NCBI GenBank assembly: GCA_007376385.1
Contig: VMGC01000003.1
Coordinates: 69,259 to 133,258, forward strand
Reading direction: 5' to 3'
Source of the DNA: Parcubacteria group bacterium Gr01-1014_8
GTDB taxonomy: Bacteria; Patescibacteriota; Minisyncoccia; Phycocordibacterales; UBA2100
Length of the DNA stretch: 64,000 bases
In this document: positions 4,167-41,414 of the stretch, piece by piece
Layout: every line of letters begins with the position of its first letter
Numbering within the stretch: the stretch's first letter is position 1
Position numbers and translations under genes: made by a program
The notes under the pieces: generated by a model
Database searches by the model: none
Seen by the model: only the letters and a program-made list of their open reading frames with translations
Told to the model about the DNA's origin: nothing

Positions 4167-4610
4167 ATGTCGCTGATAGATAACAAGCGCGGGCTCTTCG
4201 ATTACTCGGTTCTTGAAGAACTCGAGGCTGGTATCGAGTTGTTTGGCTGCGAAGTGAAATCTCTTAGAAACAAACAAGGCTCCTTGAAAGGCGCTCGCGT
4301 CGTTGCGCGCGGCGGCGAAGCATATCTTGTTGGCGCTACCATACCTGCATGGCAAATGGCGAACGCCCCCAAGAGCTATGATCCGGAGCGACCGCGCCGA
4401 TTGCTCTTAAATCAGAAGGAAATCGCCCATATTGCCTCCGCAGAGGGGGAAAAGGGATTGACAGCAGTGCCGATTTCAGTGTATAATAGAGGGCAACGAT
4501 TGAAGCTCGGCATTGCTATCGCGCGCGGGAGGAAAAAAGAAGATAAACGTCATACAATACGTGCGCGCGAGGAGGAAAGAAGGATCGAGAGAACGAAAAA
4601 GCGGAAATAG
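4167..4610 (+). CDS. smpB: SsrA-binding protein SmpB
   Basis: Conserved SmpB N-terminus (NKRGLFDYSVLEELEAGIELFGCEVKSLR) and basic C-terminal tail; tmRNA gene directly downstream. Confidence 0.9.
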   Translation: MSLIDNKRGLFDYSVLEELEAGIELFGCEVKSLRNKQGSLKGARVVARGGEAYLVGATIPAWQMANAPKSYDPERPRRLLLNQKEIAHIASAEGEKGLTAVPISVYNRGQRLKLGIAIARGRKKEDKRHTIRAREEERRIERTKKRK

Positions 4611-4899: not shown

Positions 4900-5289
4900 T
4901 GGGGGGTGACTGGTTTCGACAGGAAATTCAATGTGCTTGTGTGCAAGACGGAAGTGAGAACCTTCCTAAAAAATCTCAAACTCTAAGTGCAAACAAAACT
5001 GCACGGGGGGTTCTTTCGCCGATTCAGGCGAAAGACCTCGGCCTCGTTTTCGCTTAATCGCCCAAACGACCGTTCGTTCAGCGGGTACTCGATACCGTTG
5101 ACGCGAGCGTCATAACCATCGAGTCCGGTTTCTATTTCACTCCGAGTAGAGACTTAAAGAAAGAGAGTTAGCCGACGTATGCTTTCGTTCATCTTCTACA
5201 TACATCGGCGAATCTTCAAGATGAACTACGTCTTGTAGACGCGCCTGTGCATCATTTCTTGGACTCGAGTTCAATTCTCGACACCTCCA
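4900..5289 (+). ncRNA. ssrA: tmRNA (SsrA)
   Basis: 5' GGGGGUGACUGGUUUCGACAGG start; 3' tRNA-like end GGACUCGAGUUCAAUUCUCGACACCUCCA whose CACCUCC pairs with 5' GGGGGUG as acceptor stem. Internal tag reading frame ends ...AKDLGLVFA-TAA at 5055-5057. Lies next to smpB. Confidence 0.8.
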
Positions 5290-5346
5290 CTCGATTCGCC
5301 TCTCGCTAACGCTTGAGGCTCGCTCGTGGCAAGCCACCAGTCAATA

Positions 5347-28074: not shown

Positions 28075-28332
28075 CTAAGTTTGGTCTTGGCGACTTTCGG
28101 AAAGACGTTGCCTAAGCTTCGATTTAGCATATCCGCGATATTTTAACTGATGTTCGCGCCGACGTGCATCACCTTCAGCACGATAGGCTTCGTAATATAT
28201 CAAGGTCCACTTATGTTTTCGCGTAAATTTTGACTTTCCCTTAATATGCTCAGAAAGTCGCCGCCTCAGATCGTTTGTCGAACCTACGTACAGCAAACCG
28301 TCCTGATTTTCCAGAACATATACGTAATGCAT
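28075..28332 (-). CDS. Standalone GIY-YIG nuclease-domain protein (UPF0213/YhbQ-like)
   Basis: HYVYVLENQDGLLYVGSTNDLRRRLSEH. Confidence 0.8.
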   Translation of the reverse strand: MHYVYVLENQDGLLYVGSTNDLRRRLSEHIKGKSKFTRKHKWTLIYYEAYRAEGDARRREHQLKYRGYAKSKLRQRLSESRQDQT

Positions 28333-30363: not shown

Positions 30364-31638
30364 TTAGTATTCTCGTATTGATGTCTGCGCGTCTATTTTT
30401 TTTACGAGATCGAGAACAACAGAAACAACGATGAGAAGCGCAGTTCCACCAATAGTGACCGCCGTAAGCCCCGTTGCTCCTTGAAGCGCGATGGGAAGAA
30501 CAGCTATGGCGCCCAGGAACAGCGCGCCCACAAGCGTAATTCGCGTGATGATGTTGCCGAGATAGTCGGCCGTCATCAAGCCCGGCCGAACGCCGGGAAT
30601 GAATGCCCCATTCTTTTGCAAGTTCTTTGCGATTTGATGCGGCTCAAACGTAATAGCAGTGTAGAAGTACGTAAAGAGAAAGACGAGAAGGAAGTACAAA
30701 ATGCCATACACCCATTGATTATTAAGGAACGTGACTGTCGCGGTAGCGCCATTCGCCAGCCATGGTAATGGAGAACGAGTGAGGAATGTAGCGATCATTT
30801 GCGGAAAAAGGATCAATGAGAGGGCAAAAATTATCGGAATAACGCCGGCTTGATTCACGCGAAGCGGGAGATACGTTGAGATGCCACCGAGAACTTTCGT
30901 CCCTCGTACCCGTCTGGCGTAGGTAACAGGAACTGGCCGCTCCGCTTCCGTAATGAACACAACGCCTGCCGTGATAGCGACCGCAGCCGCAGCGAATGCA
31001 ATGTATGCAGGAAGTTGAGAGATGTCGAATGAAAATATAGCTTGCGCAAGTGCCGCTGGAATTCCTGAAACGATGCCGGCAAAGATGAGCAAAGAAACTC
31101 CGTTCCCGACACCATATTCGGTGATAAGTTCGCCAAGCCACATTAAAAGCAGCGAACCTGCCGCAACAACGAACACATTCGTCACCGTTCCCAACATATC
31201 GAGCTTCGGCACTATGCCGTTTTGCTCAAGAAGCAGAAGAAAGGCAAACGCCTGAAAAAATGCCATCGGCACGCAGAGATACCGAGAATATTGCATGAAT
31301 CGCTGACGCCCTGCATCGCCTTCCTCTTGATAGAGCGCTTTCAATTTTGGCGAGAGGATGGTCATCAGCTGCATGATGATGGACGCAGTAATATACGGAC
31401 CTACCCCGAGCATCACGATTGAGAGGTTTGAAAATCCTCCTCCAGAAAAGATATTCAAGAGGCCGAAAAACTGGTTATTGCTTAAGAAGGCTTCGAGTGC
31501 GCTCACATTGATGCCGGGGGTCGGGATAGCAGCGAGAAGTCGGAATACCATAAGTGCACCAAGAACAAATAAAACTCTCTTCCGCAGCGTCTCGTCTTCT
31601 ATGACGAGCCAAACTTTCCTCATGAATGTATCGAACAT
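30364..31638 (-). CDS. secY: Preprotein translocase subunit SecY
   Basis: 10-TM architecture, conserved SecY N-terminus and plug region. Confidence 0.95.
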   Translation of the reverse strand: MFDTFMRKVWLVIEDETLRKRVLFVLGALMVFRLLAAIPTPGINVSALEAFLSNNQFFGLLNIFSGGGFSNLSIVMLGVGPYITASIIMQLMTILSPKLKALYQEEGDAGRQRFMQYSRYLCVPMAFFQAFAFLLLLEQNGIVPKLDMLGTVTNVFVVAAGSLLLMWLGELITEYGVGNGVSLLIFAGIVSGIPAALAQAIFSFDISQLPAYIAFAAAAVAITAGVVFITEAERPVPVTYARRVRGTKVLGGISTYLPLRVNQAGVIPIIFALSLILFPQMIATFLTRSPLPWLANGATATVTFLNNQWVYGILYFLLVFLFTYFYTAITFEPHQIAKNLQKNGAFIPGVRPGLMTADYLGNIITRITLVGALFLGAIAVLPIALQGATGLTAVTIGGTALLIVVSVVLDLVKKIDAQTSIREY

Positions 31639-33681: not shown

Positions 33682-34063
33682 ACAACGCTTCGCCGCCGAT
33701 CTTTTCTTTTCTTGCCTCTTTGTCGGTCATGACGCCGCGCGGAGTCGAAAGTACTAATGAACCGTGGCCATAGCGGACCGAGACTATTTCACGTGCTCCG
33801 CGGTAAAGCCTGCGCCCCGGTTTGGACACGCGCTTCACTCCATGAATGACGTGTTCCCCCGCAGCGTCATATTTCAAAAGAACATCAATGGTCTTTTTTA
33901 TCTTCTTTCCCTTCTTCTCAACCGATGTCACATAGCCCGCATCCTTCAACTTCTCTGCAATAGCCAATTTGAATGTTGAGAACGGAACAGATACAGACGC
34001 TTTTTTTACAGCACCCGCATTCTTAAGCCGCACTATGAGATCACCGATGGGATCATTAACCAT
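33668..34063 (-). CDS. rpsH: 30S ribosomal protein S8
   Basis: MVNDPIGDLIVRLKNAG. Confidence 0.95.
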   Translation of the reverse strand: MVNDPIGDLIVRLKNAGAVKKASVSVPFSTFKLAIAEKLKDAGYVTSVEKKGKKIKKTIDVLLKYDAAGEHVIHGVKRVSKPGRRLYRGAREIVSVRYGHGSLVLSTPRGVMTDKEARKEKIGGEALFEIW

Positions 34064-34215
34064 GTTAGTTTTCGTTAGCGAATGTGAGCTTTTGCGAGCA
34101 TGAGTTTACAAACAACTTACACCCTGTTAGATCCCGCTGTAGGCGGGACGACTCGGAACGAGTCGTATTTAACAGGGTAAGGAACTTGTAATTCGCTTTG
34201 CTCATAACAATTTCC
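34064..34215. repeat. Structured intergenic repeat, copy A (rpsN stop to rpsH start)
   Basis: Shares a 5' module (GGAAATTGTTATGAGCAAAGCGAATTACAAGTTC...), a CCCTGTTAAAT/ATTTAACAGGG long-range inverted repeat enclosing two small GC hairpins, and a 3' module ending ...CTAACATG with copies at 35454 and 41059. Confidence 0.8.
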
Positions 34216-34401
34216 TTACCAGGACGACTTCTTAATGCCCGGAATATTTCCTTGAAGCGCTTCCTCTCGGAAACAAATACGGCACATGTTGAAATCACGC
34301 ATGAATCCGCGCGGGCGGCCGCATTTAAAACATCGGCGCACGGTTCGCGACGAGAATTTAGGCTTTCGTTGTGCCTTTACTACCATTGATCGTTTAGCCA
34401 T
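34216..34401 (-). CDS. rpsN: 30S ribosomal protein S14 type Z (zinc-binding, 61 aa)
   Basis: [23 protein letters not shown]. Confidence 0.9.
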
Positions 34402-34563
34402 AGAAAATGAAACGCGTACGCAAGGAGTATGATTTGAAGTTCCTGCATCCGAGGCTTACGCACAAGGATTATGGAAACTCCCACATAAGGCCTGTTTCTC
34501 GCAGTCTGCTGCCCTACCAGGGCCGCACTTGCTAAAAAACAAAGCCCCTTACGAGGCCCGGAA

Positions 34564-34593
34564 AATATACGCGAAATGGCCACCAATGTCAAT
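34564..34593 (-). promoter_or_regulatory. Candidate internal sigma-70-type promoter (TTGACA-17-TATATT) inside the r-protein operon, about 160 nt upstream of rpsN
   Basis: Minus-strand TTGACATTGGTGGCCATTTCGCGTATATT within an unusual 206-nt rplE-rpsN spacer. Confidence 0.4.
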
Positions 34594-34607
34594 TCAACCA
34601 AAAACTT

Positions 34608-35144
34608 TTAGTCTCGGAGGGGAAGCCCTAGGTGACGTAGAAAACTTTCAGCCTCTTTTTTGCTTTTTGCCGTCGTTACAATGGTAACGGCAAGACCAAA
34701 AATATCCTTCATGTCCTCGTCAGCAGTTTCAGGAAATACTGTGTGCTCCTTGAGGCCAATGGAGATATTCCCCATCTCATCAATAGCAGCCGGTTTGATT
34801 CCCCTGAAGTCGCGGACACGCGGCAAGACGATATTAACAAGCTTGTCCATGAATGCGTCCCTGCGGCTTCCCCGAAGCGTTACTTGGTACCCCACTGTGT
34901 CGCCTTGGCGCAATTTGAATGTTGCAATCGATTTCTTCGCAGCTCGCGGCGCCGGAGCTTGGCCGGTGAGTCTCGTGAGCCTGTCTACAATGAGCTCTTT
35001 TTTCTTTTTATCGATAGATGCATTGACGCCCGTTGAAACAACGATTTTTACCAGCCGCGGCGCTTGCATCGAAGATGTGTATTTGAAATCTCCTTTCAAG
35101 GCGGCGAACGCTCCCTTTACTTTGTCTACTGTTGTGTGTGTCAT
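34608..35144 (-). CDS. rplE: 50S ribosomal protein L5
   Basis: Conserved L5 core (FKLRQGDTVGYQVTLRG...). Confidence 0.95.
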   Translation of the reverse strand: MTHTTVDKVKGAFAALKGDFKYTSSMQAPRLVKIVVSTGVNASIDKKKKELIVDRLTRLTGQAPAPRAAKKSIATFKLRQGDTVGYQVTLRGSRRDAFMDKLVNIVLPRVRDFRGIKPAAIDEMGNISIGLKEHTVFPETADEDMKDIFGLAVTIVTTAKSKKEAESFLRHLGLPLRD

Positions 35145-35147
35145 ATG

Positions 35148-35453
35148 TTAAAGGGCCGAGCCGCTTTTTACAGTAACGCGTTGTCTTGCGCCGTCTTTGC
35201 GCACTATCTTTATTCGAGTCGGTTTGCCGCTCTTTGGATCAATGAGCATCACATTCGATGCGTGTATGGGGAGAGTCTTGTCGATGATCTGCCCGGAGCG
35301 ATTGTTAGCCGTTGCTCGTCGGTGCTTTTTGACTATATTAACCCCGTCAACTACCACAAGATTCTCGCGAGGAAGTGCACGCACAATAACACCCGAAACT
35401 CCGCGGTTCTTTCCCGCTATAACTATCACCTTATCGCCTTTTTTGAGTTTCAT
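35148..35453 (-). CDS. rplX: 50S ribosomal protein L24
   Basis: MKLKKGDKVIVIAGKNRG (KOW motif). Confidence 0.95.
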   Translation of the reverse strand: MKLKKGDKVIVIAGKNRGVSGVIVRALPRENLVVVDGVNIVKKHRRATANNRSGQIIDKTLPIHASNVMLIDPKSGKPTRIKIVRKDGARQRVTVKSGSAL

Positions 35454-35591
35454 GTTAGTTTTTCTTAGCGAGTGATAGCGAGCTTAGAAACAACTTACAC
35501 CCTGTTAAATACGACCTTTTCAAGGTCGTCCCGCCTCCGGCGGGATTTAACAGGGTTAAGAACTTGTAATTCGCTTTGCTCATAACAATTT
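35454..35591. repeat. Structured intergenic repeat, copy B (rplN stop to rplX start)
   Basis: Same 5' module, CCCTGTTAAAT...ATTTAACAGGG stem with two inner hairpins, and same 3' module ending CTAACATG as copy A. Confidence 0.8.
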
Positions 35592-35972
35592 CTAAACAAC
35601 TTCAGGTGCGAGTGAGCCTATCTTTTGGTATCCGCGCTCGACAACCTCTCGAGGAATCGGCCCGAAGACTCGGTTCGCTTTCGGTTCCTTCTTATCTTTT
35701 CCGGATTTCTCCAGAAGGACAACAGCATTCTCGTCAAAGCGGATGTACGAACCGTCTTTGCGGCGGAACGGCTTGGTCTGTCGAACAACGACGGCACGAT
35801 GAACTTCTTTTTTCTTCACCGCCTTGCGCGGTTGTGCGGTCTGTATGGAAAGAATGACCTCATCGCCGATAGACGCGTAACGTCGTTTACTTCCGCCGGG
35901 AACTTTGAAAATGCGCCCGGTTTGTCCGCCCGAATTATCAGCTATCTTAACTATGGTCTTGTCTTGGATCAT
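35592..35972 (-). CDS. rplN: 50S ribosomal protein L14
   Basis: MIQDKTIVKIADNSGG. Confidence 0.95.
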   Translation of the reverse strand: MIQDKTIVKIADNSGGQTGRIFKVPGGSKRRYASIGDEVILSIQTAQPRKAVKKKEVHRAVVVRQTKPFRRKDGSYIRFDENAVVLLEKSGKDKKEPKANRVFGPIPREVVERGYQKIGSLAPEVV

Positions 35973-35977
35973 ATTGC

Positions 35978-36262
35978 TTATTCCTCGTCTTTGAGGGCGG
36001 CGTGAAGCCGCTCATTAAGTACAAAGTGCTTATGCTTTGAGATGGGCTTCGTCTCTCGTATGGAGACCTTGTCGCCGACCTGGACTGTGTTTCCTGGATT
36101 GTGCACGAGATACTTCTTGCTTCGAAGAATGTATTTTTTGTACGTCGGGTGCTTCACGTATCTCTCGACAGAGACAGTAACCGTGTCTTTCATTGCCGAT
36201 TTAACGACAATTCCGACGAGAACTTTTCCTTTTTGTGTTTGTGGTTCCATAGCGATTTGCAA
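35978..36262 (-). CDS. rpsQ: 30S ribosomal protein S17
   Basis: GIVVKSAMKDTVTVSVERYVKHPTYKKY. Confidence 0.95.
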   Translation of the reverse strand: MQIAMEPQTQKGKVLVGIVVKSAMKDTVTVSVERYVKHPTYKKYILRSKKYLVHNPGNTVQVGDKVSIRETKPISKHKHFVLNERLHAALKDEE

Positions 36263-36264
36263 TA

Positions 36265-36492
36265 CTACGCAGATTTCTTATTCGCCACAAGCTCTCGTGC
36301 ACGTATCTCGGTGAGGAGCCTCGCTATATCCTTGCGCACAGTTCGTCCTTCTTTAACGTTTCGCGAACGGCTCCCGGCCTCACTAAATCTAAAATCGCGA
36401 AGCGCAGCGCGCTTTTCGGCAATCTCCTTTTTCAGGTCATCCATCGAATATTTTTTTAGGTCAGCCATAGAATTATTATCCGCGCGTAACAA
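36265..36492 (-). CDS. rpmC: 50S ribosomal protein L29
   Basis: LKKEIAEKRAALRDFRF; position between rplP and rpsQ. Confidence 0.9.
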   Translation of the reverse strand: MLRADNNSMADLKKYSMDDLKKEIAEKRAALRDFRFSEAGSRSRNVKEGRTVRKDIARLLTEIRARELVANKKSA

Positions 36493-36898
36493 CTTTCGCT
36501 TTTACCGGCAGTTTCGTTCCTGCCTTTCGCAAGGCTTCACGTGCCTGTTGCTCCGGCGCACCATCGACTTCAAAAATAACTCGGCCAGGGCGAACTTCGA
36601 CGACATATCCTTGCACGTCCCCTTTTCCTGAACCCATGCCGACTTCCGCCGCCTTCTGTGTGAACGGCCTGTCAGGAAAAACGCGTGTCCAAACCTTGGC
36701 AGTCTTGCCTGCGGCGCGAGTAAGCGCCCGGCGAGCGGCTTCTAACTGGTTTGACGTGATACGAGCCTGCGTAATTGCTTTCAATCCAAATGAACCGAAC
36801 GCAACAGTAACGCCGCGTGTTTCTGGAGCAAGGAGTCGGTTAGGATTTCTCCTCCCGGTCTGCCATTTTCGAAATTTTGCTTTTTTAGGACTCAACAT
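36476..36898 (-). CDS. rplP: 50S ribosomal protein L16
   Basis: MLSPKKAKFRKWQTGRR. Confidence 0.95.
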   Translation of the reverse strand: MLSPKKAKFRKWQTGRRNPNRLLAPETRGVTVAFGSFGLKAITQARITSNQLEAARRALTRAAGKTAKVWTRVFPDRPFTQKAAEVGMGSGKGDVQGYVVEVRPGRVIFEVDGAPEQQAREALRKAGTKLPVKAKVVTRG

Positions 36899-36903
36899 AT
36901 GGA

Positions 36904-37611
36904 TTATTTACCCGCTGCAGCACGCTGCGACTTGTCATCAGCAAATATTTCTCCGCGGTATATCCATACTTTAACGCCGATGACACCGTACGGAAGATAT
37001 GCCTCCTCGCGTGCAAAATCGATGTCTGCGCGAAGCGTCTGAAGCGGCACGCGTCCTTTCTTTATCTCCTCGGTACGGGACATTTCGGCACCGCCAAGCC
37101 TGCCGGCTATACCGATACGAACCCCCTGTACATCCCGATTCGCCATTACTTTTTCCACTGTCTGCTTCAGCACACGTCGAAACGTCTGACGCTTCTCAAG
37201 GCCTTCCGCAACCATATAGGCAACAACCGGCGCTTGAGATTCAGGGGAACGGACTTCTTCAATGTCGAGTCTCACCGGTCGGGGGGTAGGCTTCTTTGCT
37301 CCGGCAGGCGGAATAACCTTTCGTACCACTGTTTCGATTTCTTTGGTCAATTTCGCGCTCCCCTCGCCACCCCTGCCTATGATGAAACCAGGACGAGATG
37401 TCTTTATGAGAACGCGTATCATCTTTTGATTGCGTTCTATTTCAACCGACGTCACGTAGTGACCTCGAAGTCGTTTCTTCAGGAATCGGCGAATGGCGGA
37501 ATCCACCATGACATGCTCGCGGTACTGTGCAGGAGTTGCAGCAAACCAACGCGACTTCCAATCGCGGATGATGCCAAGTCTATGTGCATATGGATGTACT
37601 GTGTGTGTCAT
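36904..37611 (-). CDS. rpsC: 30S ribosomal protein S3
   Basis: VHPYAHRLGIIRDWKSRWFA; KH domain. Confidence 0.95.
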   Translation of the reverse strand: MTHTVHPYAHRLGIIRDWKSRWFAATPAQYREHVMVDSAIRRFLKKRLRGHYVTSVEIERNQKMIRVLIKTSRPGFIIGRGGEGSAKLTKEIETVVRKVIPPAGAKKPTPRPVRLDIEEVRSPESQAPVVAYMVAEGLEKRQTFRRVLKQTVEKVMANRDVQGVRIGIAGRLGGAEMSRTEEIKKGRVPLQTLRADIDFAREEAYLPYGVIGVKVWIYRGEIFADDKSQRAAAGK

Positions 37612-37614
37612 ATA

Positions 37615-37995
37615 TTATTTGCTCACGGCGACCGCGACTTCTTTTTTCTTCATTTGTTTCGCTGGTTTTGCAACAATTGTCCCAAGCTCGAGAGATATGA
37701 TGCTGCGTGTTCGACGAATCCCTGCCGCGCGTCCTCGCGCCATCGGTTTAAAGCGACGAATCACAAGGCCTTTGTCCACCGATATGGTCTTCACGAAGAG
37801 TGCGCCTGCTGATACGCCCATCCCCCTCGCGTTCGAAACCGCTGAATCAAGTAGCTTCTTGAACGCCGGCGAAGACTTTTTCGGAAGGAACGAGAGCGCT
37901 GTCATAGCGTCGTGCACTGATTTGCCGCGAATAAGGTTCGCAACGAGCCGCGTCTTCTGCGGCGATTGTCGATAATTTGTAAGCGTAGCCTTCAT
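37615..37995 (-). CDS. rplV: 50S ribosomal protein L22
   Basis: SPQKTRLVANLIRGKSVHDAMTALSF. Confidence 0.95.
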   Translation of the reverse strand: MKATLTNYRQSPQKTRLVANLIRGKSVHDAMTALSFLPKKSSPAFKKLLDSAVSNARGMGVSAGALFVKTISVDKGLVIRRFKPMARGRAAGIRRTRSIISLELGTIVAKPAKQMKKKEVAVAVSK

Positions 37996-37998
37996 ATG

Positions 37999-38358
37999 TT
38001 ATTTCTTTGCGGCTTTCGTCGCATCGCCTGACGCTTTTGCAGACGTTGCTGCAGCTATCTCGGCCTCCTTTGCCTTCATTTCTATCTCTTTTTGCATCTT
38101 TCCACCATGGCGGATGAATTTTGTGGTCGGCGCGAATTCGCCCAGTCGGTGTCCAACCATATCTTCCGTTATCAAAACCTCGTCAAAATTCTTACCCGTG
38201 TGAACCAAAAAAGTGTACCCGACGAATTCCGGCGGGATTTGGGAAGCACGTGCCCACGTCTTGATACCGCCAGCTGTCGGCTTACGGTTTGAGACTTTCT
38301 TCATCAATTTTACGTCCACGTAGGGACCTTTTTTAAGTGAGCGAGCCATAATATGCAA
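37999..38358 (-). CDS. rpsS: 30S ribosomal protein S19 (C-terminal extension)
   Basis: [18 protein letters not shown]...HTGKNF. Confidence 0.95.
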
Positions 38359-38438
38359 TTTAAAACCCGCGTCCGCGGGTAGGTCGTAAATGTATAGGAA
38401 TTACTACCTAGAGTCAAGAAAATTAGCTAATATTATGA

Positions 38439-39287
38439 TTATTTTCGCTTTCCGACCTTGCGGCGAGAAACGATAAATACGTTGGAATACTTCTTCGGCC
38501 GGCGCGATTTCTGACCCTTGCCAGTCGGTTTCCCCCACATGGATTTGGCACGACGCAGGCCTCTGCCCTGTTTGCCTTCACCGCCGCCATGCGGGTGATC
38601 AACAGGGTTCATGGCGCTGCCTCGAACTGTAGGGCGAATGCCGAGCCAGCGCGAACGGCCAGCTTTTCCCAGTACCTGCAAACGATGCTCATCATTCGAT
38701 GATTCCCCCACTGTCGCCCACGCTGTACCGATGATGCGTCGGATTTCGGAAGACGGCATTTTAAGGTGCGTGTAGCCAGCGTCCTGTGCGATGACTTCCG
38801 CAAAATTTCCCGCAGAGCGCGCTACCTTGCCGCCCGCACCCGGCATGAGTTCAATATTGAACACGAATGTTCCTACCGGAATATTAGAGAGCGGAAGTCT
38901 GTTTCCACGCTGTATAGGCGCTTGCTCGGAGACAACAAAGGTCTCGCCGACCTTCATTAATTTCGGGACAATGACATACCTGCGTTCTCCGTCAGCATAG
39001 ATAGCGAGCCCGATGAATGCGGAGCGATTTGGGTCGTATTCAATTGTCGCGATGCGCGCAGGAACATTCTTCTTATTCAATCGAAAATCAACATCTCTCA
39101 TGAGACGCTTGTGTCCCCCGCCTTTGTGACGAGTTGTGATGCGGCCGAATGCGTTGCGGCCCGCGGCGCGCTTTTTCCCAGATCGGAGGAATTTCGCAGG
39201 CTTGTGCCCTGAGAGCATCGCGCGGAAGTTGACCCGGCTCATACCGCGCTGCCCATCCGTCGTCGGTTTGTAGAATTTCATGCTCAT
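38439..39287 (-). CDS. rplB: 50S ribosomal protein L2
   Basis: NPVDHPHGGGEGK and overall L2 length. Confidence 0.95.
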   Translation of the reverse strand: MSMKFYKPTTDGQRGMSRVNFRAMLSGHKPAKFLRSGKKRAAGRNAFGRITTRHKGGGHKRLMRDVDFRLNKKNVPARIATIEYDPNRSAFIGLAIYADGERRYVIVPKLMKVGETFVVSEQAPIQRGNRLPLSNIPVGTFVFNIELMPGAGGKVARSAGNFAEVIAQDAGYTHLKMPSSEIRRIIGTAWATVGESSNDEHRLQVLGKAGRSRWLGIRPTVRGSAMNPVDHPHGGGEGKQGRGLRRAKSMWGKPTGKGQKSRRPKKYSNVFIVSRRKVGKRK

Positions 39288-39290
39288 AAA

Positions 39291-39680
39291 TTATGCAATG
39301 GTTATTGTTTCGCCTTTTGTAAGGTATACGTATGCTTTCTTTCCTCCTTGTTTTGTGCCGCGAGCGCCTGTCCTTGAGTTTCGAACCTTCTTCTCAGGAA
39401 CCGATACTACGCGAACCATGCGAGGTTGTACTTTGTAGTACTTCAGAACGGCCTCTGATATTTCCCTCTTGGTAGCACGGGATGCCACGTCAAACACATA
39501 CACGCTCATCAACGCCGCTGCAGTTGCTTTCTCTGTTATCCGAGGACGCATGAGGATGTGCGAGAGATCAGTGTTACTTTTGCTCTCACTTCGGCGAGTT
39601 ATTTGGCTCGCAGGTGCGGCAACAGAAAGCACGTCCGCCTTCGGTTCCGTCTTTGGTTTTCTGCTGAAAAGTGCATTCAT
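39291..39680 (-). CDS. rplW: 50S ribosomal protein L23 (N-terminal extension)
   Basis: ILMRPRITEKAT...YVF core. Confidence 0.9.
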   Translation of the reverse strand: MNALFSRKPKTEPKADVLSVAAPASQITRRSESKSNTDLSHILMRPRITEKATAAALMSVYVFDVASRATKREISEAVLKYYKVQPRMVRVVSVPEKKVRNSRTGARGTKQGGKKAYVYLTKGETITIA

Positions 39681-39688
39681 AAATATTT

Positions 39689-40444
39689 TTATTGGTCACC
39701 TTTTTCCACCTCGCGCACTGACGTTACACTCGCTTTTGCTCGCTTCGTTTTTGCAGGCGCCTTCTTCTCGTCTTTCTTTTGTTCCCCAAAACGATGCGCA
39801 AGAATTGCAACAGCTGCCTCTGGATTCTCTATCACGAGGTATGAGTTTCTCATAACAGACACCGGATTCAGTTCGCGCACTGCCCTGCATTCGATGTTTG
39901 CGATGTTGCGAAAACTTTTCACCGATGCTTCGCGCGGGTCAGCAAGGGCAACGAGCGCCGCGTTCCGTGTCTTTTCGTGCATGGCATTAAAACCAAGCGC
40001 CTTTCCGAGCGAGGCGATCGCTTTCTTTGCGAGGGCGGTCTTCGGCGCATCGATCCCGAATGAATCAACGAACACAACTTCGCCACTCTTCAATTTTCGA
40101 GAAAGCGCCATTGCGAGCGCTTTGATGCGCATCTTTCTCGGGATCTCGCGGGCATATGACTTTTCATTGCGAGGGCCGTGCGTCACTCCACCGCCGCGCC
40201 ATATCGGCGAGCGTATAGAACCGTGACGAGCGCGGCCAGTTCCCTTTTGCTGCCATGGTTTTTTGCCGCCGCCCCGTACCTCGCCGCGCTCCTTTACGTG
40301 CGCGACCGGTGTGCGAGCATTTGAAAGCATAGATGTCACGACCTGATGCATCAGCGAATCATTCCACGCAACATCAAAGACACGCTCTGGCAATTCCACC
40401 GAGCCTGACTTTTTTCCTTGTGTGTTGTATACGTCGTATTTCAT
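39689..40444 (-). CDS. rplD: 50S ribosomal protein L4
   Basis: MKYDVYNTQGKKSGSVELPERVF. Confidence 0.95.
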   Translation of the reverse strand: MKYDVYNTQGKKSGSVELPERVFDVAWNDSLMHQVVTSMLSNARTPVAHVKERGEVRGGGKKPWQQKGTGRARHGSIRSPIWRGGGVTHGPRNEKSYAREIPRKMRIKALAMALSRKLKSGEVVFVDSFGIDAPKTALAKKAIASLGKALGFNAMHEKTRNAALVALADPREASVKSFRNIANIECRAVRELNPVSVMRNSYLVIENPEAAVAILAHRFGEQKKDEKKAPAKTKRAKASVTSVREVEKGDQ

Positions 40445-40449
40445 ATAAT

Positions 40450-41058
40450 TTAGCCTCGGATCTCAACCAGCGTGCCGGGCCTTCCTGGCACGGCACCTGA
40501 GATAACAAGAGTATTGGATCCAGCATCAACCTGCAAAACACGCAGATTCCTCACGGTTATTCGATCGCCTCCCATGCGGCCGGCCATTCGCATCCCTTTC
40601 ACCACGCGTCCGCCGGCACGACCGCCGCCTCCGATTGAACCCGGAGAACGCTCTTTGTTTTTTTGACCGTGCGAGCGAGGGCCTCCCTTAAAACCGTGCC
40701 TCTTCACGACACCTTGAAAACCCTTTCCTTTTGATATCGCGGACACTTCAACAATATCGCCCGGTGCAAACACTGAGACATTTATTGTCGCGCCCCTTTC
40801 CATTGTTTCCGCTCCTTTAAATTCTCGGGCGTATCGGAAATTTCCGAGATCTTTGAAGTGCCCTTGTACCGCCTTGCTCAGATTCTTCTGTTTCCGGTCG
40901 CCGAAGCCAAATTGCACGGCCGCGTAGCCATCCTTTTCAACACTTTTAGCCTGAGTCACTGTGAGTGGCCCAGCAGTAATGATGGTCGCAGCAGCAACTG
41001 CGCCATCTTCATTGAAGATCTGGGTCATTCGACCCTTAGTTCCGAGCATGAATTTCAT
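40450..41058 (-). CDS. rplC: 50S ribosomal protein L3
   Basis: MKFMLGTKGRMTQIFNEDG. Confidence 0.95.
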   Translation of the reverse strand: MKFMLGTKGRMTQIFNEDGAVAAATIITAGPLTVTQAKSVEKDGYAAVQFGFGDRKQKNLSKAVQGHFKDLGNFRYAREFKGAETMERGATINVSVFAPGDIVEVSAISKGKGFQGVVKRHGFKGGPRSHGQKNKERSPGSIGGGGRAGGRVVKGMRMAGRMGGDRITVRNLRVLQVDAGSNTLVISGAVPGRPGTLVEIRG

Positions 41059-41170
41059 GTTAGAGATTCTTAGCGAGTTACTACGAGCTTAGAAGCTCTT
41101 ACACCCTGTTAAATGCAACTCTTCCGAGGTTGCCCCGCCTCTGGCGGGATTTAACAGGGTTGTGAAAACT
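41059..41170. repeat. Structured intergenic repeat, copy C (5' leader immediately upstream of rplC start; lacks the 5' module of copies A/B)
   Basis: ACACCCTGTTAAAT-[two hairpins incl. CCCGCCTCTGGCGGG]-ATTTAACAGGGTTG plus conserved 3' module ...CGAGCTTAGAAGC...CTAACATG. Confidence 0.75.
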
Positions 41171-41321
41171 ATAGTCGTCCTCGCTTCGCTTCGACCCCTT
41201 AGTTTTCAACAAAAAACCGCGCCACTGGCGCGGATGGTTCATCCGAGTCCAGTGGTCCCGTATTGGGACATGGGTGACCCGTGAGATGGCGGCCTTGCGG
41301 CCTATCTCATGGGTTCGCGGC

Positions 41322-41350
41322 ACTATACACCCCATGAGATAACAAGTCAA
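41322..41350 (-). promoter_or_regulatory. Candidate sigma-70-type promoter of the rplC-led operon (TTGACT-17-TATAGT)
   Basis: Minus-strand TTGACTTGTTATCTCATGGGGTGTATAGT; predicts a ~255-nt structured leader containing repeat copy C. Confidence 0.5.
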
Positions 41351-41414
41351 AAACTTCTCGTACAGAACAGATTTTCTATCTCACGGGGTACACGAGGAGT
41401 GTACGGGATGCAAA

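Follow-up and report, generated by a model that had tools for sequence, protein, structure and literature searches.

A palindromic repeat, probably an inserted mobile element, at three sites in the ribosomal-protein operon of a Candidate Phyla Radiation bacterium

Three copies in one operon

The minus-strand ribosomal-protein (r-protein) operon of a tiny-genome bacterium of the Candidate Phyla Radiation (CPR) holds three copies, A, B and C, of a hairpin-forming repeat about 150 nt long. All three lie in this one operon of the window, the whole 64-kb stretch of DNA that was searched (p about 0.03 for chance clustering). Each is built around a core in which a 12-bp stem (ACCCUGUUAAAU/AUUUAACAGGGU) closes two small hairpins, flanked by a left (L) and a right (R) hairpin. 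The parts are as follows.

34064..34215, minus strand: copy A, whole element, 152 nt, from the rpsN stop (34216-34218) to the rpsH ATG (34061-34063)
34181..34215, minus strand: copy A L hairpin GGAAATTGTTATGAGCAAAGCGAATTACAAGTTCC, with loop motif GAGCAAAGCGA
34121..34178, minus strand: copy A T-shaped core, a 12-bp stem and two hairpins, interior inverted relative to B and C
34064..34120, minus strand: copy A R module, the mirror of L plus a 12-nt insert, 3' end ...GAAAACTAAC touching the ATG
35454..35591, minus strand: copy B, whole element, 138 nt, from the rplN stop TAG (35592-35594) to the rplX ATG (35451-35453)
35559..35593, minus strand: copy B L hairpin, with the AG of the stop codon as part of its stem
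35499..35556, minus strand: copy B T-shaped core
35454..35498, minus strand: copy B R module, 3' end ...AAGAAAAACTAAC, then ATG
41059..41207 (end approximate, ~41207), minus strand: copy C, whole element in the rplC leader, from a conserved leader hairpin (41217-41233) to the rplC ATG (41056-41058)
41164..41207, minus strand: copy C L hairpin, of another subtype (GAAAACTAAGG...TATAGTTTTC)
41103..41160, minus strand: copy C T-shaped core
41059..41102, minus strand: copy C R module, 3' end ...AAGAATCTCTAAC, then ATG
41329..41389, minus strand: diverged core-like palindrome with compensated arm variants (CCCCGTGAGATAG...CTATCTCATGGGG)
41276..41314, minus strand: second diverged core-like hairpin (ACCCATGAGATAGG-CCGCAAGGCCGC-CATCTCACGGGT), with one inner hairpin

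The first-pass annotation had placed three copies here, and several measurements confirmed them. The arm 11-mer CCCTGTTAAAT occurs six times in the window at up to one mismatch, as three arm pairs, where 0.85 occurrences are expected and 0 of 100 shuffles reach six. A covariance model of the core, run with filters off, found just copies A, B and C in the 64 kb (E 1e-8 to 1e-11), and the three copies fold far better than shuffled sequence (z = -4.5, -5.5 and -7.3). The independent Logan assembly L002 starts within copy B and ends within copy A, so the copies are not an assembly artefact; A and B act as repeats in the assembly graph. The extents first given for A and B stand, while C is longer than had been proposed, with an extra 5' hairpin at 41164-41207.

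The anatomy was also largely as described. A long-range inverted repeat encloses two hairpins in all three copies, in the form of perfect 12-nt arms around a T-shaped core; A and B share 25 identical nucleotides of 5' module, and a 3' module adjoins the ATG in A, B and C. The hairpins of A do differ in order from those of B and C, as had been noticed, but what has changed is the orientation of everything that the arms enclose, inverted as one block. On the sense strand the core of copy A has a single mismatch, A.C, which reads as G.T on the opposite strand, and the outermost pair of the L hairpin is A-U in copy B and G-C in copy A. The L subtype of copy C is also found in Saccharibacteria and Nomurabacteria copies, and the arm variant of the diverged palindrome at 41329..41389 recurs in a Kaiserbacteria locus (L040). 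At 138-152 nt the copies carry no transposase gene, and their sole ORF is a spanning frame of 42-46 codons.

Covariation and spread of the core

The exact-arm pattern was found at more than 119 loci, against about 10 expected. Among the matches listed are many classes of Patescibacteria, four Omnitrophota MAGs, Desulfobacterota, one Spirochaetales MAG and others, where the taxa are MAG labels and mis-binned contigs are possible. The repeat is thus not specific to r-protein operons, its core being spread through numerous genomes and phyla. Besides the three copies in the window, other MAGs have copies on several contigs or several copies per 8 kb, and the same 8-kb loci hold further diverged, nested and tandem copies. 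The stem with two hairpins is the predicted fold of 100 of 130 core sequences. A search of 2.9 M viral contigs gave a single dubious match. Against Rfam 15 the sole match at the gathering threshold was tmRNA, and relaxing to E<=10 added just spurious sub-threshold matches; neither Rfam 15 nor the searchable literature describes such palindromic repeats in the CPR, and no paper in it matches the element.

The inner stems have strong covariation support. Pairing is kept in 98.6% of alignment cells, compared with 77.7% in shuffles and at most 50% when partners are slid, and 677 cells show double changes, compared with 165 in shuffles. All four Watson-Crick types are used at 14/14 inner pairs, and G.T (G.U) pairs make up about 1%. 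Loops are 3 nt long in 133 of 192 cases, and the core lies in either orientation relative to genes (29:23, not significant). R mirrors L closely enough that one motif search is satisfied in both orientations, and the strand asymmetry is likewise mirrored: for L the better fold is that of the sense strand and for R that of the antisense strand, the sense strand of R having A.C where the antisense strand would give G.U. Heavy inner-hairpin covariation that is almost purely Watson-Crick, together with loops of mostly 3 nt and flipping orientation, fits a DNA palindrome.

Junctions, gene context and the spanning frame

The element is absent from these three junctions in about 50 related operons, and the core is absent from 46 related loci (401 kb). 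Near-zero spacers, said earlier to be normal here, are indeed seen in relatives. In most of them rpsN and rpsH overlap by 7 nt (tcATGGTAA), where the window has cTGGTAA-[152 nt]-ATGGTTA, and rplN/rplX spacing is -4 to ~30 nt, with values of -4 to 57 nt in the nearest relatives, so these two genes overlap or have a short spacer. The rplC leader of locus L206 is homologous but has the hairpin, 11 nt and then the ATG. Other palindromes occupy the rpsN/rpsH junction in three other lineages, the rpsM/rpsK junction carries different cores in L040 and L054, and different cores sit within the same L/R modules at L135, L130, L124, L131 and L054. Since the element is missing from relatives, the ancestral genes overlap and the modules reassort, the copies are best read as insertions of a MITE/REP-like element. 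Because other families sit at other junctions of related operons, the junctions look like hot spots for palindromic inserts.

Two short repeats flank copy A.

34216..34222, minus strand: left 7-nt direct repeat, CTGGTAA
34057..34063, minus strand: right 7-nt direct repeat, ATGGTTA

A 7-nt direct repeat also flanks the inserts of L145 and L128 at copy A's site, and in L129 the same duplication is present with its repeats just 5 nt apart. As L129 illustrates, the repeat at copy A could be a duplication that was there beforehand. No such repeat flanks copy B or copy C. The genes that recur within 8 kb of the copies include no transposase or HUH family, and no autonomous parent sharing the element's ends was seen there. 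RAYT was not seen either, among these neighbours or elsewhere in the 64-90 kb of genome covered.

Full copies fit flush into the space from a stop codon or terminator to the next start codon, and the genes concerned are mostly highly expressed. Eleven of 26 precede r-protein genes (p = 2e-6), and the remainder precede nusA (three), recA (two), groEL, dnaJ, hsp20, topA and similar genes. Their core-to-ATG distance is fixed at 33-46 nt. Core-only copies are also found between convergent and divergent genes. The terminator scan flagged none of the three cores as an intrinsic terminator, and the core is followed by GUGUAAG, with no U run. The genome is poor in Shine-Dalgarno (SD) sequences, and its native junctions have the form A-rich-TAA-N1-6-ATG. 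Full copies seem built to keep translation going, and with their flush placement this upholds the earlier idea that each copy supplies a translation-initiation region.

Copies that lie between two cistrons have an ATG in the L loop, from which a frame of 32-62 codons runs through the entire element to a stop 1-3 nt ahead of the downstream AUG. Copies A and B both have it.

34065..34205, minus strand: copy A mini-ORF, 46 codons, ATG 10 nt past the rpsN stop and TAA 1 nt ahead of the rpsH ATG
35455..35583, minus strand: copy B mini-ORF, 42 codons, ATG 8 nt past the rplN stop and TAA 1 nt ahead of the rplX ATG

The frame is open in 7 of 8 intercistronic copies ascertained from DNA, despite unrelated cores of 30-125 nt, and in neither of two leader copies; copy C, L049 and the AT-rich subfamilies are among those without it. 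Statistical support in the unbiased set is modest, with p = 0.018 for the reading phase and 0.067 in the Fisher test. Four extra sites between cistrons, which were ascertained through the ORF peptide itself and not through DNA, show an ATGA overlap or a 5-10-nt gap upstream and 1-3 nt downstream. This placement suggests that the mini-ORF may act as a translational relay which passes ribosomes to the next gene. We know of no counterpart to an element-spanning relay frame.

Origin of the element and comparison with known systems

Between the two readings first offered for the repeat, the MITE-like one is favored by its absence from related junctions, the other palindromes found there, the reassorting modules and the dispersal of the core over phyla. 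A simple MITE scattered in random contexts does not describe it, since the copies occupy flush stop/start sites of mostly highly expressed genes. The repeat is probably a non-autonomous mobile element of the MITE/REP kind, palindromic and dyad-symmetric, that inserted at these sites, is maintained at the DNA level and seems equipped with a relay. It is modular, a T-shaped palindrome with a conserved 12-15-bp stem and two hairpins of free sequence, set between the mirror hairpins L and R. On this reading it entered the rplC leader and two stop/start junctions of the r-protein cluster that overlapped or had hardly any spacer, after the split from relatives whose r-proteins are about 82% identical. 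Palindromy and flipped interiors would be kept at the DNA level, with intrastrand hairpins or cruciforms acting as templates and the segment between the arms inverting, and perfect pairing would not be kept by selection on the mRNA fold.

The element would be co-transcribed with the operon and tolerated, possibly even useful. Its 3' end would recreate the SD-less native junction of the genome (A-rich, UAA, 1 nt, AUG). In copies between cistrons, the L-loop AUG, 0-10 nt from the upstream stop, would start a frame whose translation unwinds the whole element; as this frame ends 1-3 nt before the downstream AUG, ribosomes may thus be relayed by termination-reinitiation, with coupling preserved.

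The bias toward highly expressed genes and the fixed spacing from R to the ATG could instead reflect a selected host function. A dedicated cis-regulatory or processing RNA would make the repeat a regulon signal and not selfish DNA, its fold binding an r-protein, RNase III/Y/E or a Nus factor and setting the stability, cleavage or translation of rplC, rplX and rpsH. The strong predicted fold and the enrichment of full copies before r-protein, nusA, recA and chaperone genes at 33-46 nt agree with this, the stem sequence, invariant across phyla, suggests a sequence-specific binding partner, and the R module may loosely resemble boxA (GCUCNUUAAAAAUC). Its position is not kept across some 50 related operons, however, and unrelated palindromes sit at the same junctions; core orientation relative to transcription is near random; G.U is nearly absent, and the sense strand of R has A.C where antisense would have G.U; core-only copies also lie between convergent and divergent genes; and Rfam gives no match even at E<=10. 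We consider regulatory or processing RNA unlikely as the primary nature of the repeat. An r-protein leader or autoregulatory mRNA structure was rejected on the unconserved position and the lack of G.U-tolerant, strand-specific covariation.

It is quite improbable that the repeat, in place of being a transposing element, serves a site-specific enzyme of the host or a plasmid, for example as a folded single-strand site of recombination or nicking of the attC, Xer or HUH-Rep type, with the flip/flop T-shaped core as a working substrate, as in parvovirus ITRs. The T shape, the 3-nt loops, the flip/flop orientations, the Watson-Crick-only pairing and the GAGC-type motifs in the L and R loops would all suit such a site. 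We take the GTTAAAT/ATTTAAC of the core arms to fit the attC core-site consensus strings, and the arm string TGTTAAAT to match the outer portion of the XerD arm of E. coli exactly. The two core strings are in reverse order relative to attC, though, and no cassette array, integrase, Xer or Rep gene lies beside the copies, which are inside essential operons where recombination would be harmful. This explanation also partly overlaps the mobilisation step of the insertion reading. In attC the order is 5' R'' (RYYYAAC) ... R' (GTTRRRY) 3', in a cassette array beside intI; an integron attC site was rejected, as GTTAAAT...ATTTAAC reads the same on both strands and the contexts are housekeeping operons.

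That the functional product is a small protein encoded by the repeat (MSKANYKFLTLLN...KKN, 32-62 aa) is already disfavored and very hard to credit: the frame is open in most intercistronic copies and gene callers predict it in four assemblies, but from copy to copy the peptide has an unrelated middle third, which follows the inversion and the compensatory changes of the hairpins, L135 reads homologous R-module nucleotides in different frames, unrelated cores give unrelated peptides, these proteins have no recorded Pfam domain, and the frame is missing in copy C, L049 and all AT-rich subfamilies.

A broader proposal, which we offer tentatively and at somewhat less than even odds, is that these are cross-phylum "self-insulating" mobile palindromes, with a T-shaped, ITR-like core and, in a Kaiserbacteria-type subfamily, a built-in relay mini-cistron. 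The arm sequence common to Patescibacteria, Omnitrophota and Desulfobacterota would then imply horizontal spread and a structure-specific enzyme. Likewise, a relay AUG that overlaps or closely follows the upstream stop and a UAA that abuts the downstream AUG would restore termination-reinitiation coupling, which would let the element spread into the most highly expressed operons that SD-poor streamlined genomes have, and perhaps become domesticated there.

Small palindromic repeats are known from a few well-studied genera. CPR genomes are supposedly streamlined, yet here such elements are inside the r-protein operon itself. Specialists may be interested in the 12-15-nt arm sequence found across phyla, in inner hairpins that evolve freely while staying perfectly paired, and in the reassorting modules. 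The fitted mini frame between cistrons offers a testable way for an operon to tolerate a 150-nt structured insert with coupling intact. In practice, the element breaks assemblies and gives rise to false small-ORF calls, and it is easily confused with a leader of the riboswitch type.

REP/BIME and REPIN sequences of Enterobacteria and Pseudomonas, mobilised by the HUH Y1 transposase RAYT, are likewise short palindromes without transposase coding, and also occur in many copies as hairpins in transcribed intergenic or intercistronic spacers. REPs are thought to be recognised as folded single strands, a likeness that may extend to this element. A REP consists of one imperfect hairpin, 20-40 nt long and tagged with GTAG/CGTC, and is specific to a genus, whereas this element has a three-way core between mirror hairpins and an arm sequence common to several phyla. 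Membership in the REP/REPIN class was rejected, as the three-way core starts ACCC, ends GGGT and lacks the GTAG/CGTC tag.

Correia elements (Neisseria) and ERIC/IRU (Enterobacteria) are likewise dyad-symmetric units of 100-150 bp next to or between genes and co-transcribed with them; their RNA hairpins affect processing or stability, and expression signals can come from their ends. A Correia element is bounded by 26-bp terminal repeats with a TA duplication, and the family belongs to one genus, whereas here modules reassort, with the same L/R around different cores. BOX elements of Streptococcus pneumoniae share modularity (boxA-boxB-boxC, compared with L-core-R), stable folds and a place near gene starts, but their sequence is unrelated, their modules are not mirror images and they have no T-shaped core.

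The parvovirus/AAV ITR is a structural analogue only, with flip/flop forms, a stem flanked by GAGC-type motifs and two 3-nt-loop hairpins. An ITR measures about 125-145 nt and ends a linear ssDNA genome that uses rolling-hairpin replication, unlike the units here, which are 57 nt long, chromosomal and inside operons. The T shape and flip/flop agree in geometry only, and with no linear ssDNA terminus a parvovirus-type terminal repeat was rejected; the likeness is analogy and not membership. Rickettsia palindromic elements (RPE) are likewise palindromes of reduced genomes that survive in essential genes by staying translatable. They insert in frame within a protein and join it, whereas the frame described here is a separate mini-cistron between two genes.

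Copies of the repeat in the ribosomal-protein cluster

Encoded on the minus strand, the ribosomal-protein cluster extends from rplC at 41058 to secY at 30364, without an L30 gene and with no S10 gene upstream of rplC. The S10 gene, rpsJ, was found about 16 kb off the rplC cluster, near tuf and a RusA-like gene (window about 57610-57981, minus strand; 6060-6431 in L208, where L plus a number denotes a locus from another genome or metagenome). The first-pass annotation had placed three copies of a structured repeat in the cluster, and their positions were borne out on the minus strand.

34064-34215, minus strand: copy A, between rpsN and rpsH
35454-35591, minus strand: copy B, between rplN and rplX
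41059-41207, minus strand: copy C, in the rplC leader
41329-41389 and 41276-41314: diverged core variants in the rplC leader
L module: AT-rich weak hairpin with the loop motif GAGCAAAGCGA
Core: three-way junction in which a 12-bp stem, ACCCUGUUAAAU/AUUUAACAGGGU, closes two hairpins with zero unpaired junction bases
R module: reverse complement of an L-type unit, with the 3' end ...AAAAACUAAC immediately before the AUG

Copy C had been described as lacking the 5' module, but an L hairpin of another subtype was found at 41164-41207. The two inner hairpins had been said to vary in order; copy A does differ in this way, but because everything between its arms is inverted. The arm 11-mer occurs 6 times in the window against 0.85 expected. 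A covariance model of the core, run over the whole window with filters off, matched the cores of copies A, B and C only, and the modules flanking them do not recur elsewhere in the 64-kb window, which is the searched extent of the host genome; a look-up by EF-Tu led to one and the same contig, which stops 40 nt past the window. An independent assembly starts inside copy B and finishes inside copy A, as is typical of assemblies at repeats.

Other features were recorded in the window and its relatives. The 206-nt rplE/rpsN spacer (34402-34607, minus strand) has a promoter-like site close to consensus, TTGACA-17-TATATT (34592-34564), then a hairpin with a T run (34559-34532) and a leader of about 130 nt. 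The arrangement is kept whole in the Kaiserbacteria loci L206 and L207 (184 nt) and so appears to be an internal promoter with leader, of ancestral origin, serving rpsN-rpsH; there is no relation to the repeat. In the rplC leader, ahead of copy C (41208-41350, minus strand), there is a promoter-like site, TTGACT-17-TATAGT (41350-41322), followed by a structured RNA of about 100 nt; L206 keeps the 3' part of this RNA (CCCAAUACGGGACCACUGG...hairpin CCGCGCCAGUGGCGCGG). This RNA has no Rfam match and may be an r-protein leader of the L3/L4 type. The 89-nt rplB/rpsS spacer (38350-38438, minus strand), which in relatives measures 14-126 nt or holds large inserts, has a promoter-like site at 38417-38389 and a hairpin, ACCCGCGGACGCGGGT (38380-38365), which also takes the ACCC...GGGT form. 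A GIY-YIG-domain ORF of 85 aa (28075-28332, minus strand, between map and purD) is missing in the otherwise syntenic L203 and L206 and therefore appears to be a small nuclease gene gained by insertion, and smpB (4167-4610) adjoins the tmRNA gene (4902-5292; tag ANKTARGVLSPIQAKDLGLVFA). Several r-protein junctions of relatives, and none in the window, carry a 27-nt intercistronic motif, TAG-TTCGAC-NNN-CTCACTATAAATA-N3-6-ATG (L203 994-1015 and 4521-4542; L143, L150, L156, L163; similar in L206, L158, L164), reminiscent of the T7 promoter core.

Insertional origin and DNA-palindrome signature

NCBI lists an identical RplE under Parcubacteria group bacterium Gr01-1014_8, and the closest relatives are Kaiserbacteria, with RplE identity of 78-82%. 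The core has zero matches over the 401 kb formed by about 42 related metagenome operons (RplE identity 57-80%) and the four nearest relatives. At rpsN/rpsH most relatives have a 7-nt overlap, tcATGGTAA, and the window has cTGGTAA-[152 nt]-ATGGTTA; at the same spot three other lineages carry different palindromes, also between two (A)TGGTAA copies. Since L129 has this duplication with merely five bases separating its copies, the 7 nt can be read as a target-site duplication or as a precondition for insertion. Neither of the target-site models tried, TA and 7-nt, holds consistently from copy to copy. In the nearest relatives rplN/rplX has a -4 overlap or a spacer of 27 to 57 nt. Kaiserbacteria L206 has an rplC leader homologous to that of the window, ending in hairpin-ATAAACTATAT-ATG; copy C is therefore an insertion, and with it the T run that gives the hairpin its terminator look. 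Judged from these junctions, the copies are best taken as insertions and not as ancestral structure.

The modules also reassort, as L135, L130, L124 and L131 share the L and R modules of the window around wholly different central hairpins, and at one junction, rpsM/rpsK, L040 and L054 carry cores that differ. Further lineages possess AT-rich palindrome families of their own, at other junctions again. Lineage-specific AT-rich inserts of 80-190 nt were seen at varying r-protein junctions of CPR relatives, in L128, L130 and L206 (the CGAAATCCGAA... family), in L206/L207 (the GTCATAAGTCA... family) and in L139, L161, L162 and L204, so palindromic inserts are general in this CPR clade. No recurrent transposase or HUH gene lies near the copies (764 neighbouring ORFs clustered into housekeeping families only), and a search of IMG/VR for a phage vector gave one atypical match.

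The family was scanned for as ACCCTGTTAA-N30-48-TTAACAGGGT in one genome per species, and the matches listed include more than 119 loci, against about 10 by chance on our own estimate; a handful of them resemble chance matches. With the taxonomy of metagenome-assembled genomes (MAGs) taken as labelled, the listed loci come from Patescibacteria (Kaiser-, Nomura-, Taylor-, Nealson-, Moran-, Doudna-, Saccharibacteria and others) and from four Omnitrophota MAGs, several Desulfobacterota, one Spirochaetales MAG and a few more. Among the genes of the non-CPR loci are those for anthranilate synthase and for GlpA-like and PaaK-like enzymes, so these loci are not obviously mis-binned CPR contigs. The core L117 3287-3346, from the 'Deltaproteobacteria' MAG AUK176, is 86% identical to copy B over 64 nt, inner hairpins included; such likeness under another phylum's label points to horizontal transfer or mis-binning.

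A stem with two hairpins is the fold of 100 of 130 cores. The core model found further diverged, tandem or nested copies in core-bearing loci, some with compensated arms such as ACCCCGTGAAAT/ATTTCACGGGGT. Nested or tandem cores were recorded at L079 4590-4690, L026 4967-5067, L008 2050-2162, L014 5447-5520 and L106 3480-3547; in L079 the place of the second hairpin in an outer ACCCCGTTAAAT core is taken by an inner one. The WOR-3/Stahlbacteria MAG loci L029, L053, L058 (three copies), L065, L041 and L067 share the 12-nt arms of the family around an AT-rich interior of about 40 nt, with the two inner hairpins missing and ATCTGCGT-like repeats flanking the arms. These arm pairs could represent a sub-type of their own, or another element that uses such arms.

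The compensatory changes first noticed by eye were borne out on an alignment of 142 distinct cores. Paired cells make up 98.6%, against 77.7% when shuffled and at most 50% with partners slid, and double-sided changes number 677 against 165 in shuffles. All four Watson-Crick types occur at 14 of 14 inner-hairpin pairs; the outer stem is almost invariant. A selected mRNA fold would covary differently. G.U makes up about 1% of core pairs, 133 of 192 loops have 3 bases, and the two core orientations split 29:23 with respect to flanking co-directional genes, which is not significant. In the 25 gene-oriented full copies the sense strand gives the stabler L and the antisense strand the stabler R, and the G.U pairs are distributed as mirror images. 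These four features are those of a DNA palindrome, whose arms are complementary on both strands.

Gene context and a mini-ORF across the element

On crude ORF calls, cores lie between co-directional genes 79 times and between divergent or convergent genes 20 times, and the core-to-start distance peaks sharply at 35-44 nt. Because native spacers measure 0-10 nt, an insert necessarily sits flush with the stop and start codons, and this position alone is no evidence for function. The gene bias of the full copies is such evidence. R-protein genes follow 11 of the 26 full tripartite copies (binomial p = 2e-6, assuming that they make up at most 8% of genes), and the remainder precede nusA (three times), recA (twice), groEL, dnaJ, hsp20, topA, mraZ, a BipA-like GTPase gene, atpF, serS and others.

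Shine-Dalgarno sequences are scarcely used in the host genome, and native junctions read A-rich-TAA-N1-6-ATG, a signature that the 3' end of R matches exactly. In the Kaiserbacteria-type subfamily an ATG in the L loop (ttATGagc) starts a frame that crosses L, core and R and ends at a TAA 1-3 nt upstream of the next gene's ATG. All three frames meet a TAA within R, and one frame only reaches the last. The spanning frame is open despite unrelated cores of 30 to 125 nt in copies A (46 codons) and B (42) and in L040 (42), L054 (62), L130 (49), L135 (32) and L124 (36). Copies C and L049 lie in leaders, with no cistron ahead of them, and there the frame is closed or missing. For these DNA-ascertained copies the reading phase alone gives p = 0.018, and the contrast of intercistronic with leader copies p = 0.067.

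A peptide search returned four predicted proteins, and the frame fits between cistrons at all four loci: rpsN/rpsH, rplW/rplB, and gatC and trpD, each with its next gene, where the mini-ORF ATG overlaps the upstream TGA. At the last two (L210 1480-1495 and L211 2090-2105) the upstream gene extends into L, where the TGA of ttATGAgc ends it, so the element provides both that gene's stop and the mini-ORF start. The middle third of the peptide is unconserved, and L135 reads homologous R nucleotides in different frames; translation itself, not its product, would therefore matter. The AT-rich subfamilies have no spanning ORF. From the frames we would give perhaps an even chance that the mini-ORF is a relay restoring termination-reinitiation coupling.

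Alternatives and comparison with known systems

The element does not fit an r-protein leader, as the position is not conserved and the covariation is not of the RNA type. A promoter role was rejected: a sigma-70 scan flags zero sites in the copies, and in other subtypes the TATAAT-like strings are parts of AT-rich palindromic stems, at variable distance to any -35. An intrinsic terminator was dismissed for want of a U run after the core.

Rfam 15 returned nothing relevant at the gathering threshold or at E<=10, the open literature gave no description by arm sequence or by CPR taxon names combined with MITE, REP or palindromic, and CPR phyla go unmentioned in a 2024 survey of conserved prokaryotic MITEs. 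We also see what we take to be resemblances to attC core sites, the XerD arm TGTTAAAT, rrn boxA, 16S nucleotides ~1496-1504 and the GAGC repeats bound by AAV Rep. The order of core strings is wrong for attC, and the parvovirus ITR, alike in geometry (a T shape, flip and flop), serves as an analogy only. The element works like REP/REPIN, Correia, ERIC and BOX, the small palindromic repeats of other bacteria, and is classed here as a variant of them; the defining tag and single hairpin of REP are missing from it.
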